Origin: an uncultured Bacteroidaceae bacterium
GTDB lineage: Bacteria > Bacteroidota > Bacteroidia > Bacteroidales > JAADGE01
DNA: 64,000 bases
Direction: 5' to 3'
Assembly: GCA_964472505.1 (NCBI GenBank)
Contig: CAYYQW010000002.1
Span: 43,750 to 107,749, forward strand
Shown here: piece by piece, positions 20,613-46,575 of the stretch
Layout: every line of letters starts with the position of its first letter
Position numbering within the stretch: position 1 is the first letter of the stretch
The notes under the pieces: model-generated
Seen by the model: only the letters and a program-made list of their open reading frames with translations
Told to the model about the DNA's origin: nothing
Databases searched by the model: none
Translations under genes and position numbers: made by a program

Positions 20613-20666
20613 AGTTTTGAATTCTTAAATAAATAAAGCGGAAAGATATACATAATCGAAAGAATC

Positions 20667-21049
20667 AACAAACCCATGACTCGGTTTGCAAATAAAACAG
20701 GCTAAATATTATTTTGAGGCGCTGAATGTTATTAAGTCCTATTTTTTTAAGCAGATACTCGTATTTCTGAATTTAACTGCATCTATGTATATTATCGTAT
20801 TAGTGCATTGGCCGGTATAATTTAACCGGGCAATATATAGCCGCTAATGCACGAATAATAACTATAAGCAGTCAGATATTTATTAGTGCATTCGTGGTAA
20901 GTTTTCAATATTGATGAATCCGGAACGAATGCACTAATGCCGATAGTTTTTGTTGTAGTTGTAGCTTATCTGTGAAATAAGGCGGATTACTAATGGAACT
21001 CAACAGCTCAAAATAATATTTTGCCATAAAACACCTTCATGGGTTTGTT
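20667..21049. repeat. Nested inverted-repeat element (MITE-like or structured leader) between metH and the upstream gene
   Basis: The outer inverted repeat is 13 bp (AACAAACCCATGA at 20667-20679, complement at 21037-21049). A second 15-bp inverted repeat follows (AAATATTATTTTGAG at 20704-20718, complement at 21007-21021). Inside is a perfect 14-bp hairpin, ATTAGTGCATTCGT...ACGAATGCACTAAT, at about 20882-20938. A second, weaker hairpin at about 20798-20855 shares the GTGCATT core. Confidence 0.6.
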
Positions 21050-21053
21050 TCTG

Positions 21054-21680
21054 TCATTTTATTTTAACCACAATATCGTTTAAGATTCGTGTGTTGCCGT
21101 CGGGGCCTTTGGCGTGAATATTTTCAAAAATCAATCGCTCGCCGGATTGTAATTTTTTTATGGCAGATTGCTGCTCTTTTGAGAAAAATGCGGAACTCGA
21201 TTCATATGTTTTTTCATCGATGAGAAGCGAGAAATCACTAATTTCAAAATTAAATTTTGGATATTCCGTTAAAAGATCTATTCCTTCAAGCGCCAATAAT
21301 TCATCAACGCTAAACAGTCCGCCTTTACGATTTTGATTATCGCCGAGCACGGCTTTAGGCTTGGGAAGATCGCGCAATTCAAGCTTATATTTGCCTATTA
21401 TTCGGTCTTCATGCACAAGCCTTATTTCGGCTTCATCTTGCGAAGTTTCGGCGGGTATTTTCAGAACGGACTTGCAAGCTTCTTTGGAAGAAGACCAACT
21501 CCCCACATCGGTTAAAACGGAAATCTCGTTACAGGGAATTTCTTCAGCCATTATCACTAAATCATTTGAAACGCCTTTAAAAACATAATTGTTATCAACA
21601 ACTGACAGCACGGATACCTGTGCCGACAATGAAAAAATGCCAAAAAATAATGCTGTGAATAATACTACAAAGTTTTTCAT
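21054..21680 (-). CDS. Secreted hypothetical protein
   Basis: The protein has a signal peptide (MKNFVVLFTALFFGIFSLSAQ). The start was moved to the ATG at 21680. No domain was recognised. Confidence 0.55.
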   Translation of the reverse strand: MKNFVVLFTALFFGIFSLSAQVSVLSVVDNNYVFKGVSNDLVIMAEEIPCNEISVLTDVGSWSSSKEACKSVLKIPAETSQDEAEIRLVHEDRIIGKYKLELRDLPKPKAVLGDNQNRKGGLFSVDELLALEGIDLLTEYPKFNFEISDFSLLIDEKTYESSSAFFSKEQQSAIKKLQSGERLIFENIHAKGPDGNTRILNDIVVKIK

Positions 21681-39510: not shown

Positions 39511-39583
39511 GACTCGCTAGCTCAGTCGGTAGAGCAACGGCCTTTTAAGCCGTGGGTCCTGCGTTCGAATCGCAGGCGGGTCA
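39511..39583 (+). tRNA. tRNA-Lys (anticodon UUU)
   Basis: A cloverleaf can be read directly. The acceptor stem GACTCGC/GCGGGTC includes one G-U pair. The D-loop is AGCTCAGTCGGTAGAGC, the anticodon loop is CTTTTAA and the T-arm is GGTTCGAATC-like (GCGTTCGAATCGC). The gene is 73 nt with no encoded CCA. Confidence 0.9.
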
Positions 39584-41251: not shown

Positions 41252-41326
41252 CCTGTTTTTTTTGTTTCCGGTTGGCTAAAGATATAAAATTTTTCTTAGA
41301 GTCCATTTTCAAAAATCCACGTTCAT

Positions 41327-41545
41327 AAAAATTTGCCAAATTTGTACCCGTAAAAAGCCTGAAAATCAATAATTTCCCGGCTACCAAGCAAGCCCAAATT
41401 CGGCAGTTTTAAAAGAAACACTTCAAAACGTCCGGAGGACTTTTGAACGTGTGGGCAGAAAGGCGGGCGGTAGGTTTTTATCGACCATGACGTTTTGAAG
41501 TCCTCCGGACGTTCAAAAGTCATTGACCCACGAAACACAAGCACC
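41327..41545 (+). repeat. Palindromic repeat locus 1 (modules A0-C0-B0)
   Basis: A0 (41327-41410) is a diverged copy of the A module. C0 is a bulged hairpin at 41418-41452 and B0 is a bulged hairpin at 41487-41523. The tail CACGAAACACAAG is shared with locus 2. Confidence 0.85.
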
Positions 41546-41716: not shown

Positions 41717-41874
41717 AATAGCTTTTTCCGATATACCACGACAAAATATATTTTCATTTTATGCAAGAATAAGTTTATTCGGAAGGTGCTGTTAAAATTT
41801 TCTTTGCGGAATATTTAACAGCTATAAACGTTTTTTATAATTCGAAAAAATTTATTAATCATAAAAAATTGCAC

Positions 41875-43167
41875 ATGAAATTACATCACTTTAAATCTAT
41901 AACCCTATTTATTGCAGCTGTATTTTTTTTCTTTCAAAGTTGTGAAAAAGAGAACTATCAAGCTGCCGAAAGTACAAATGAGATAAAAAAAGAAACAATT
42001 ACCAAGAGCAACCCGCACAGCGTTTCGGAAAATGAAGCAGAGCAGTTTGCTTTAAATTTTTATAATACACATTTTAGTAACAAGAAAAACCAAAAAATTA
42101 AGAACCTAAAAAAAGTGAAAGTTCCCATACCCGGGAAAAAGCTTTATGCGGCCGAGATGGAACCCAAAGGCTATGTTATTATGTCGGATGACAAAAGAAA
42201 CGTACCGGTTTTTTCGTTTTCGGAAAACGGATCGTTTGATTATAAAAGTTTAGACGATTTGCCCCCGGGAGTAAAAGAATGGGCTACTGAATTTTTGCTG
42301 ATGAATCTGCACTTGCAGAGCAACCATGATAAATCGCAAAAAGAAAACCGACAAACCCAATTGTGGAACACCTACCTCGACAACAATACCGAAGAAAAAA
42401 TAATTACTCCGGAAGAATGCGATCATTATTTTGTTGAGCACGTGCAAACCATATATGATGACTGCATTATGGAAACCGCTTGGGGACAAGGGCCTCCATA
42501 TAATCTACTAACTCCGATATGCGATGATGACGGAGACCACACTCCCGCCGGCTGTGTAGCCGTAGCCATGGCGCAGGTAATGAAGTATTGGCAACATCCC
42601 GATGACTTTTCTTGGGACATCTTGAAAAACTATTATTCATCCAATGAAACAAACCGAAGCGCCTACGAGGCAGCCGGACTAATGAAAAACATCGGCGATA
42701 ATGTTTCAATGAATTACGGATGTGACGGTTCCGGTGCTTCTCTAAATAAAGCAAAAAAAGCTTTGGATAATGACTACGGCTACAATGACAATATTGTGTA
42801 TGATGATTATCATATTGATGATATCAAAAATAATATACAATTCGGGTATCCGGTAATTTTGGGCGGCTTTAGAACAGTTCAAGAATGGCTCGGGATAAAA
42901 ATATATCTGAACGGGCACGCTTGGGTAGCCGATGGTTATTGGTTGGAATACGACCGCTACAAAGAAGTATGTTATACAGGAGGTGGTGTTCCGCTTGAAC
43001 GTTATTATTCAAAAAATTATCAATACTACATTCACATGAATTGGGGTTGGAGTAATAGAAGCGGAGAAAACACTTGGTATTACAGCAATGAACTTACTGC
43101 ACCCGATAACGGCTCCGGAAATGATTACCAATGGAATAAAAGCATGATTATAAATATTCACCTTTAA
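41875..43167 (+). CDS. C10 family (streptopain/SpeB-like) cysteine peptidase lipoprotein
   Basis: The protein has a lipobox (FFQSC) and an N-terminal propeptide-like region. The catalytic Cys context is PAGCVAVAMAQVMKYW and the catalytic His context is NGHAWVADGY. The HMNWGW motif is also present. All three contexts match SpeB-type signatures. Confidence 0.85.
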   Translation: MKLHHFKSITLFIAAVFFFFQSCEKENYQAAESTNEIKKETITKSNPHSVSENEAEQFALNFYNTHFSNKKNQKIKNLKKVKVPIPGKKLYAAEMEPKGYVIMSDDKRNVPVFSFSENGSFDYKSLDDLPPGVKEWATEFLLMNLHLQSNHDKSQKENRQTQLWNTYLDNNTEEKIITPEECDHYFVEHVQTIYDDCIMETAWGQGPPYNLLTPICDDDGDHTPAGCVAVAMAQVMKYWQHPDDFSWDILKNYYSSNETNRSAYEAAGLMKNIGDNVSMNYGCDGSGASLNKAKKALDNDYGYNDNIVYDDYHIDDIKNNIQFGYPVILGGFRTVQEWLGIKIYLNGHAWVADGYWLEYDRYKEVCYTGGGVPLERYYSKNYQYYIHMNWGWSNRSGENTWYYSNELTAPDNGSGNDYQWNKSMIINIHL

Positions 43168-43177
43168 AACAGACACC

Positions 43178-43633
43178 ATGAAAAACATACTTTTAATTTT
43201 AAGCACTTTAGCATTAATAATGCTGTTTGAAAATTGCGACAAAAACGGAGAATTTATATGCACCGCAGACCATTTTGTTTTTTTAGACGAAAATGGTGAA
43301 GATATTTTTAATACAGAGAGTAATTGTTACATTGATACGTCGGATATTAAGGTTTTTACTCCGGAGAATGAAGAATATCCCATTATATTTGGATTTAGCG
43401 ACAGTTTGAAAATGTACAGCATAGATATAGGGATAAATGGCAAAATCGGACAGGAAGATACTACATTTATTCAGTTCGGAGATTTTAATGTGGATACCAT
43501 TCGTGCCGTTTACACAGAAGAAGGACATTTACAGATTGATGAAATGTATTACAACGACTCATTAATTGAATCATTTTGCAATACACCAAAAGCTCATAAA
43601 ATCACCGTAAAACCGGATTCTGTTTACAACTAA
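43178..43633 (+). CDS. Small lipoprotein, candidate cognate protease inhibitor (staphostatin/Bfi-like by position only)
   Basis: The protein is 151 aa with a lipobox (LFENC). It starts 10 nt after the peptidase stop. The function is inferred only from the known protease-inhibitor gene pairing. Confidence 0.55.
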   Translation: MKNILLILSTLALIMLFENCDKNGEFICTADHFVFLDENGEDIFNTESNCYIDTSDIKVFTPENEEYPIIFGFSDSLKMYSIDIGINGKIGQEDTTFIQFGDFNVDTIRAVYTEEGHLQIDEMYYNDSLIESFCNTPKAHKITVKPDSVYN

Positions 43634-43663
43634 AGCCGGTTTACGCATGAGGGAGGCTGAATC

Positions 43664-44342
43664 AAAAAATCTGCCGGATTTCTACCCATAAAAAGCCGAT
43701 AAGTCAATAAGCTTCCAACTACCAAGCAAACCCAAATCCGGCAGATTTATTTGTTTAGCTAAATCTGTCCGACCGCTTTGAGCGGTCAGACGGATTGAAA
43801 CCCTGACGTTTTGAAGTCCTACGGACGTTCAAAAGTCATAGCCGCGGCACGATTTTCAACCAACCGCAAGTAAAACCTCACGAAACACAAGTCCGCCAAT
43901 ACCCGAAACACTTCAAAACGTCCGACAGGACTTTTGAACGTGTGGGCGAAAGAACAGGCCGTAAATTTTCACAGACCATGACGTTTTGAAGTCCTGCCGG
44001 ACGTTCAAAAGTCATAGCCGCGGCACGATTTTCAACCAAACGCAAGTAAAACCTCACGAAACACAACTTCGATAATACCCGAAACACTTCAAAACGTCCG
44101 ACAGGACTTTTGAACGTGTGGGCGGAAGAGTAGCTGAATAAATAAACCCATGACCTTTTGAAATTGATAAAAATCTGCCGGATTTTTACCCATAAAAAGC
44201 CGATAAGTCAATAAGCTTCCAGCTACCAAGCAAACCCAAATCCGGCAGATTTATTTGTTCAGCTAAATCTGTCCGACCGCTTTGAGCAGTCAGACGGATT
44301 GAAATCCTGACGTTTTGAAGTCCTCCGGACGTTCAAAAGTCA
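43664..44342 (+). repeat. Palindromic repeat locus 2 (modules A1-B1-C1-B2-C2-truncated B-A2-B3)
   Basis: The direct repeats 43664-43838 and 44168-44342 are 175 nt long, 504 nt apart, with 6 mismatches. The B hairpins are at 43805-43838, 43980-44013 and about 44307-44342. The C hairpins are at 43908-43943 and 44084-44119. The B-to-B period is 175 nt and the C-to-C period is 176 nt. Confidence 0.9.
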
Positions 44343-46390: not shown

Positions 46391-46469
46391 GATTATAATA
46401 TTTAAAAAGTGATATATTTTAAGCTTGTATTAGCCCGGTTCGTATGTGAGAAGTTCCTCTAAAAAAAGA

Positions 46470-46569
46470 GGGGCAAGCTACTCACATCGCACCGCTACAA
46501 CCGCCGTACCCTTGCTTCCGTCAAGACCTGGGGGAGTTAGGCAGGAGCTGGTCGTATGAGACTTACCCC
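46470..46569 (-). ncRNA. ffs: Small (4.5S-type) SRP RNA
   Basis: The minus strand reads GGGGTAAGTCTCATACGACCAGCTCCTGCCTAACTCCCCCAGGTCTTGACGGAAGCAAGGGTACGGCGG...GTAGCTTGCCCC. The conserved domain IV core is CCAGGTC..GAC-GGAA-GCAAGGGTA with a GGAA tetraloop. The 5' GGGG..AAG pairs with the 3' CTT..CCCC, and a T-run follows. The ends are approximate. Confidence 0.7.
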
Positions 46570-46575
46570 GGATTG

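Follow-up and report, generated by a model that had tools for sequence, protein, structure and literature searches.

A hairpin pair nested in a local inverted repeat upstream of metH resembles a dispersed repeat family found beside GxxExxY genes

We analysed the intergenic region upstream of metH in a 64-kb stretch of contig CAYYQW010000002.1 from an uncultured Bacteroidaceae bacterium; the whole of this stretch is called the window below. The region contains a 383-nt element of nested inverted repeats, which we read, with a probability of about 0.6, as composite palindromic repeat DNA resembling repetitive extragenic palindromic (REP) sequences and bacterial interspersed mosaic elements (BIMEs). 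On this reading an orphan pair of hairpins from a GxxExxY-associated family is nested in a local inverted repeat, and was gained, at a rearrangement site, once the lineage had separated from that of a relative, L091. Hairpins of the family occur in at least 37 metagenome contigs, spread over intergenic sites that are unrelated to one another, and the inverted repeat that surrounds the pair at metH is imperfect, about 60 nt long (13-bp and 35-nt segments) and locus-specific. The element is absent at the orthologous position in the close relative L091, where the gene order differs as well. The element itself is fairly ordinary, and the part worth following is the hairpin family and its link to the common GxxExxY protein.

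The palindromes that an earlier note had picked out from the sequence were all recovered (Table 1). Its 13-bp and 15-bp inverted repeats are both present, the latter as the core of a 35-nt repeat whose arms are 77% complementary overall. Its perfect 14-bp hairpin with a palindrome in the loop is our hairpin B, in which TCAATATTGA occupies 20905–20914, and the second hairpin that it placed on the same core is our hairpin A, with 22-nt arms. The 11-mer core ATTAGTGCATT occurs four times in the element (one copy with one mismatch), in line with the four copies of a GTGCATT/AATGCAC core that had been described, and zero times elsewhere in the 64 kb. The distances to the genes were also as reported, with one outer arm 4 nt from the stop codon of the upstream open reading frame (ORF) and the other 55 nt from the metH ATG. 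The proximal outer arm has an alternative local pairing as a terminator-like hairpin (20689–20668).

That these are chance palindromes in an AT-rich spacer, a possibility raised in the same note, finds its one argument in base composition (38.6% G+C in the window) and was refuted by shuffle controls, which leave it a negligible probability. The spacer folded at −112 kcal/mol on the metH-sense (minus) strand (z = −5.4) and with z = −4.1 on the plus strand, and 0 of 100 shuffles folded as well; the longest inverted repeat in shuffled flanks was at most 11 nt, compared to the 15 and 13 nt observed. The hairpins, moreover, match a family that recurs independently. The palindromes of the element are thus real and not due to chance. 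A description of the whole element as one large degenerate palindrome was rejected, as the two spacers that separate the repeats from the hairpins do not mirror each other (348 of 1000 shuffles scored as high). The small internal ORFs (40 and 44 aa) had no family match, and carried two non-synonymous changes in L092, a close strain.

The hairpin family was retrieved by scanning metagenome contigs with the pattern ATTAGTGCATT-N15-45-AATGCAC[G/T]AAT, which gave 61 loci. Family hairpins consist of two inverted 17-nt arms, ATT[A/C]GTGCATT[A/C]GTGGC, around a variable loop of 9–28 nt (75 distinct hairpins). The extension [AC]GTGGC, which was not queried, was present at 5 or more of its 6 positions in both arms of 50 of the 69 distinct hits, representing 37 loci (chance 7 × 10−5 per hit). 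Copies occur as singles, pairs and arrays of up to 14 arms, are intergenic and lie beside unrelated housekeeping genes, with clusters found between convergent (9), tandem (14) and divergent (4) gene pairs. The sequence is strongly conserved across metagenome-assembled genomes (MAGs) of Bacteroidales and Ignavibacteria. At arm positions 4 and 12, A and C alternate and the partner arm shows no compensating change; this speaks against selection for perfect RNA pairing and in favour of the arm sequence, or an irregular folded single strand, being recognised. No relevant Rfam match was obtained for ten hairpin-bearing loci, nor for one array (E ≤ 1), and no family hairpin was present in the viral contigs scanned. 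We found no description of the family in the literature searched, including that on GxxExxY/PF13366 and on Bacteroidetes REPs. About ten pattern matches are not family members (L027, L040, L049, L054, L057, L065, L071, L075, L082 and L085): these are long perfect palindromes whose flanks are mirrored too and which include the 11-mer by accident, and they may be assembly fold-backs or hairpin-ended DNA.

Judged by their sequence, hairpins A and B of the window are diverged members of this family. A covariance model (R1) built from 55 family hairpins scored hairpin B at 39.3 bits (E = 3 × 10−7) and hairpin A at 38.3 bits (E = 5 × 10−7; E ~3 × 10−7 to 8 × 10−7 overall), and the rest of the 64 kb gave no score above 13 bits. 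As the window’s own core had served to retrieve the family, 22 of 34 arm positions match by construction and only the remaining arm positions count as independent evidence; across the window’s four arms, 16 of 24 unqueried positions match the family (P ~ 1 × 10−4). Hairpin A of L092 is nearer the consensus in both arms, with AGTGGC replacing AGCGGC in one and CG replacing GG at arm positions 12–13 in the other, and the start of the hairpin B loop resembles that of a long-loop subfamily, GG(C)TAA[G/A][T/C]TTT. Beyond the hairpin arms, nothing in the 383 nt matched the 61 hairpin-bearing loci, and flanking inverted repeats exceeded the chance level in 0 of 41 other hairpin clusters; the metH locus alone has the outer 13-bp and 15/35-nt inverted repeats.

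We then compared the locus among strains and relatives. Five same-species assemblies, drawn from four sequencing runs or samples (two from one run) and including microbial-mat runs of PRJEB25599, encode an identical MetH and carry an identical 441-nt spacer in the same orientation; a metagenome contig of the Joint Genome Institute, Ga0153773_1000385, also matches the window. L091 and L092 were reached via the upstream GldM-like ORF. In L092, whose GldM-like protein is 97% identical, the element is present with 14 substitutions and an 18-nt deletion (20698–20681). In L091, whose MetH is 91% identical over 614 aa, only 80 nt precede metH and no trace of the element was found. There the order FtsK–aminotransferase–GldM-like is kept, followed by a 245-aa alpha/beta-hydrolase-like gene on the other strand (L091:5482-6219) and then metH, while a 64% orthologue of the hydrolase lies about 46 kb away in the window’s genome (L104:14487-15137). 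The element therefore sits at a gene-order breakpoint, and no remnants of the L091 hydrolase were detected in the window’s intergenic region. The earlier note had proposed comparing the metH upstream regions of relatives, and L091 does supply one without the element, but with the gene order altered and the hydrolase gene in place. In a scan of GTDB species with MetH the closest was L002, at 74% identity and with an unrelated upstream region, and the element was absent upstream of metH in L091, L002 and 20 other relatives’ loci; a MetH homologue search returned just fragments of about 60% identity and no close relatives. As far as sequence comparison goes, matches outside the species and L092 are limited to the hairpin arms, with the outer and inner inverted repeats and the spacers unmatched.

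The same note had also suggested looking for further copies in the same genome. The hairpin family does occur elsewhere at unrelated loci, but no second copy of the element, no copy of its ends and no further hairpin was found in ~78 kb of this genome (the window plus ~14 kb). The note had itself taken copies at unrelated loci to refute a metH-specific regulator, and by that measure such a regulator is refuted.

Table 1 Features of the metH upstream region and of hairpin-bearing GxxExxY loci. Positions without a locus prefix refer to the window.
Feature	Position	Strand	Description
Whole intergenic region	20613–21053	−	From the stop of the GldM_4th-domain ORF (21054–21056) to the metH ATG (20612–20610); from ORFs and Pfam
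Outer inverted repeat, metH-distal arm	21037–21049	.	TCATGGGTTTGTT on the plus strand; perfect 13 bp; kept in L092
Outer inverted repeat, metH-proximal arm	20667–20679	.	AACAAACCCATGA on the plus strand; perfect 13 bp
Inner inverted repeat, distal arm	20991–21025	.	35 nt; perfect 15-bp core 21007–21021; two substitutions in L092
Inner inverted repeat, proximal arm	20700–20734	.	35 nt; perfect 15-bp core 20704–20718; three substitutions in L092, one inside the core
Hairpin B	20882–20938	.	Perfect 14-bp stem 20882–20895/20925–20938; 29-nt loop; identical in L092
Hairpin A	20798–20857	.	Arms 20798–20819/20836–20857, 82% complementary; more diverged family member
18-nt segment between proximal inner and outer arms	20681–20698	.	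Present in the window, deleted in L092 (alignment)
Candidate −7 box	20641–20648	−	TATCTTTC, one mismatch to the Bacteroidetes-type TAnnTTTG; motif scan; conserved in L092
Hairpin-number comparison	L093:10408-10682, L098:2230-2389, L095:10408-10837		Assemblies of one GxxExxY locus
GxxExxY genes between inverted 17-nt arms or arrays	L026:815-1641, L060:1023-1971, L076:399-1378, L093:9749-10682		
GxxExxY genes between inverted 17-nt arms or arrays	L106:3946-4423, L108:10441-11514, L110:9940-10450		

The sole recurrent neighbour of the hairpins was PDDEXK_3/GxxExxY, encoded by 6 of 80 distinct ORFs that lie no more than 300 nt from a hairpin, a protein of 124–128 aa in the PD-(D/E)XK superfamily (TIGR04256, PF13366). 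PDDEXK_3 ranked first among the Pfam families of these 80 ORFs, and no transposase or Y1_Tnp was among the most frequent. In L076 the GxxExxY gene lies in the “loop” of a hairpin, within arrays: one arm runs up to the base that precedes the stop codon, and its inverted partner is found 15 nt upstream of the gene start. One hairpin-flanked GxxExxY protein is annotated in Bacteroidales MAGs, where hairpins within 20 kb are confined to the surroundings of the gene. Assemblies of one and the same GxxExxY locus differ downstream of the gene: L093 has five hairpins there, L098 has three, and L095 has a scaffold gap filled with Ns. This indicates that the arrays grow and shrink, or break assemblies. 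As an independent test, three more distinct GxxExxY loci were chosen by protein similarity alone (~80–83% identity), and family arms adjoined the gene in 3/3, one of them from an Ignavibacteria MAG. GxxExxY genes at hairpin loci are ~80–95% identical across Bacteroidales and Ignavibacteria MAGs, and the copy examined has more than 5,500 related protein clusters (clustered at 90% identity), many of them on very short contigs. No GxxExxY gene was present in the viral contigs scanned, nor in the 64-kb window when searched with a hidden Markov model of six GxxExxY proteins flanked by hairpins; elsewhere, too, many family copies are orphans without a GxxExxY gene.

These associations lead us to propose, tentatively, that the small GxxExxY PD-(D/E)XK protein may have the hairpin family as its cognate nucleic-acid partner, which would be a third nuclease–hairpin partnership after REP-associated tyrosine transposase (RAYT)–REP and SsnA–NTS. 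Under such a partnership the gene would reside in the “loop” between inverted arms while arrays grow and shrink around it, and orphan hairpins, such as the pair before metH, would be scattered products or targets of the enzyme. Orphan hairpins might then mark sites of cleavage or recombination, which would fit the gene-order difference at the metH spot. If the protein acts on the hairpin, GxxExxY, an abundant protein of unknown function, gains a function, a PD-(D/E)XK example joins the short list of nuclease–repeat partnerships, and there is an explanation for metagenome assemblies breaking at these loci.

Among described systems, REP/BIME sequences share with the hairpin family their form as short imperfect intergenic palindromes that occur as singletons, dimers 20–100 bp apart and clusters with strain-variable copy number. 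REP dimers spaced 20–100 bp apart and REP dimers nested in longer palindromes have both been documented (PMC3733652), and a hairpin pair inside a local palindrome, as at metH, therefore has a precedent. However, REPs have been classified into GTAG- and CGTC-tagged families (Di Nocera et al. 2013, PMC3733652), whereas the family arm starts with ATT[A/C]GTGC and has neither tag at either end. Its arms are also longer (17 nt, with a doubled 8-mer) and its loops long and variable (9–28 nt), no Y1 (RAYT) transposase is among the frequent families of the 80 neighbouring ORFs, the recurrent partner being the PD-(D/E)XK GxxExxY protein, and the window’s genome has one locus in ~78 kb although other genomes hold arrays. 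The NTS/SRM hairpin repeats are associated with a small GIY-YIG single-strand nuclease, SsnA, in an NTS-ssnA-NTS arrangement (Nat Commun 2025, PMC11893778). The likeness to our loci lies in the order repeat–small nuclease gene–repeat, in hairpins that are also scattered in genomes, and in a single-domain gene of ~100–125 aa flanked on both sides, but the protein of the present family is PD-(D/E)XK and not GIY-YIG, the repeat sequence is unrelated, the family is known here from sequence alone, and the window itself has no nuclease gene.

For the metH locus, we suggest that the hairpins arrived after the split from the L091 relative, by the family’s own spreading mechanism or by recombination, and that the outer inverted repeats would either be a palindrome that was already there and took up the pair, or belong to a larger repeat unit. 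Expression would be affected in a generic way at most: long stems in a read-through transcript, beginning just past the upstream stop codon, could act as a 3′-end barrier or processing structure. The stems would insulate metH from the upstream gene; the last ~65 nt probably contain a separate metH promoter. On the minus strand, TTTG at 20672–20669, within the proximal outer arm, is a possible −33 box of metH; TATCTTTC lies 20 nt further downstream (20648–20641), and together the two form a plausible metH promoter, conserved in L092. Should the promoter be real, the metH transcript would begin downstream of most of the element. The 80-nt metH upstream region of L091 contains an exact Bacteroidetes −7 box, TACTTTTG.

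Several observations weigh against the interpretation as repeat DNA. Two hairpins at one locus in ~78 kb, with no GxxExxY gene there, are sparse for a REP-like family, and the uniqueness of the outer repeats means that the family alone fails to explain them. Of 423 spacer positions aligned between the window and L092, 14 (3.3%) differ, a lower proportion than at the third codon positions of metH (15.6%, P = 5 × 10−9) and one not above that at third codon positions of the upstream gene (6.2%), and a 152-nt block at 20844–20995, hairpin B included, is unchanged between the two. The low divergence and the unchanged block hint at constraint or homogenisation. As proof of selection, however, the block is weakened by a change-free run of 169 nt in adjacent aminotransferase coding DNA. 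Four of the five inner-repeat changes in L092 keep or improve metH-sense pairing (two make Watson–Crick pairs and two make G–U pairs, the latter confined to the metH-sense strand, while the fifth breaks a pair), numbers that are too small to test in a stem comparison resting on two distinct sequences, the window and L092.

Of the two interpretations offered in the earlier note, a MITE-like insertion or a large structured leader of metH, the repeat-DNA side is nearer the truth in that the hairpins are dispersed, but the 383-nt unit as a whole is unlikely to be a miniature inverted-repeat transposable element (MITE). Such an element would be a non-autonomous transposon with imperfect terminal inverted repeats of ~60 nt, the hairpin pair inside and a transposase supplied in trans. 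Perfect 13-bp ends, a subterminal 35-nt repeat, a length of 383 nt and a non-coding, intergenic position all agree with this, as does the missing element in L091, and the true multi-copy mosaic repeat at 41.3 and 43.7–44.3 kb in the window indicates that the genome tolerates such elements. The likeness extends to Correia-type MITEs of Neisseria, which are non-coding, ~100–400 bp long, bounded by terminal inverted repeats, situated between genes and able to alter neighbouring transcripts. However, the flanks (...AAGAATC and TCTGTCA...) show no target-site duplication, GAATC facing TCTGT, and only the internal hairpins recur: neither the window nor the ~14 kb beyond it has a second copy, the element had no match in plasmids or phages by BLAST, and its inner repeat pair was found in none of the viral contigs scanned. 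With nothing beyond the hairpin arms matching and with spacers that do not mirror each other, a MITE origin of the entire unit, which would then be of low copy number, is unlikely from the ~78 kb covered. An inversion switch of the Bacteroidales type is very unlikely. In this scenario a recombinase would flip the ~256–288 nt between the inner repeats, turning a promoter toward or away from metH, and the resemblance lies in a 35-nt inverted repeat, perfect over a 15-bp core, around a few hundred intergenic bases directly before a gene in a Bacteroidales-like genome, an assignment that rests here on the small signal recognition particle (SRP) RNA. Yet 6 of 6 assemblies (the five of the same species and L092) have one orientation, though these are consensus assemblies in which a minority orientation would not show; the promoter consensus TAnnTTTG has no exact match on either strand inside the element, the segment 20735–20990 included; no recombinase is encoded among the neighbouring genes examined; and L092 has a mismatch within the core repeat. 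To our knowledge, known invertons are without an extra outer repeat and internal repeat-family hairpins, which we also count against this explanation.

It is also quite unlikely that the region acts as a functional RNA on a co-transcript of the gldM-like gene and metH, whether as a long 5′ leader that controls metH or as an intercistronic stem made of domesticated hairpins and cut by a double-strand RNase or blocking exonucleases. The very stable predicted fold, a stem that begins right behind the upstream stop codon, a divergence below that of neighbouring third-codon positions, the unchanged 152-nt block and the two inner-stem changes to G–U pairs on the metH-sense strand would be in keeping with such a role. 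But the plus strand folds almost equally well, as is expected from symmetry at the DNA level, the A/C alternation in the family arms is uncompensated, the region tolerates the 18-nt indel and a change in the 15-bp core, nearby coding DNA has a change-free run about as long as the unchanged block, and the candidate metH promoter would be downstream of most of the element. A cobalamin or S-adenosylmethionine (SAM) riboswitch leader would likewise be a long structured region before a methionine-cycle gene, but there was no covariance-model match and no conservation before metH in L091, L002 or the 20 other relatives. The Rfam search (cmscan) at gathering thresholds returned no family for the element, and at E ≤ 10 just sub-threshold eukaryotic miRNA and snoRNA models and the antisense-RNA model IsrR (12 bits), all at chance level; no riboswitch or other Rfam family was found in the 20 relatives’ metH loci, 3 kb upstream included. 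These searches bear out the earlier statement that cobalamin and SAM-I riboswitch cores could not be found, and the structured-leader alternative put forward with it gained no support, given the same result, the absence in relatives and the like folding of both strands. For metH the outcome is thus negative: nothing points to a new riboswitch for methionine, folate or B12, and the region is not worth pursuing as one.

The genes around the element are on the minus strand. metH (20612→16968, 1214 aa) encodes all five MetH Pfam domains, and the upstream ORF (21749→21054, 231 aa) a GldM_4th (GldM C-terminal) domain. The only Rfam matches in the window were a Bacteroidales-type small SRP RNA at 46467–46575 (minus strand, 91.6 bits) and one tRNA at 39511–39583 (plus strand). 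The window contains a second, unrelated multi-copy palindromic repeat of mosaic structure, at 41322–41522 and 43660–44342 on both sides of genes at 41869–43633, with units of ~90, 132 and 174 nt, a 35-nt core TGACGTTTTGAAGTCCTCCGGACGTTCAAAAGTCA that occurs four times, 15-bp AAATCTGCCGGATTT inverted repeats and no Rfam match. Past the low-coordinate end of the window, a large multi-haem cytochrome gene cluster lies beside ResB-type cytochrome c biogenesis genes (L099:11601-19494), which suggests an organism with extracellular or metal-linked electron transfer, in microbial mats.

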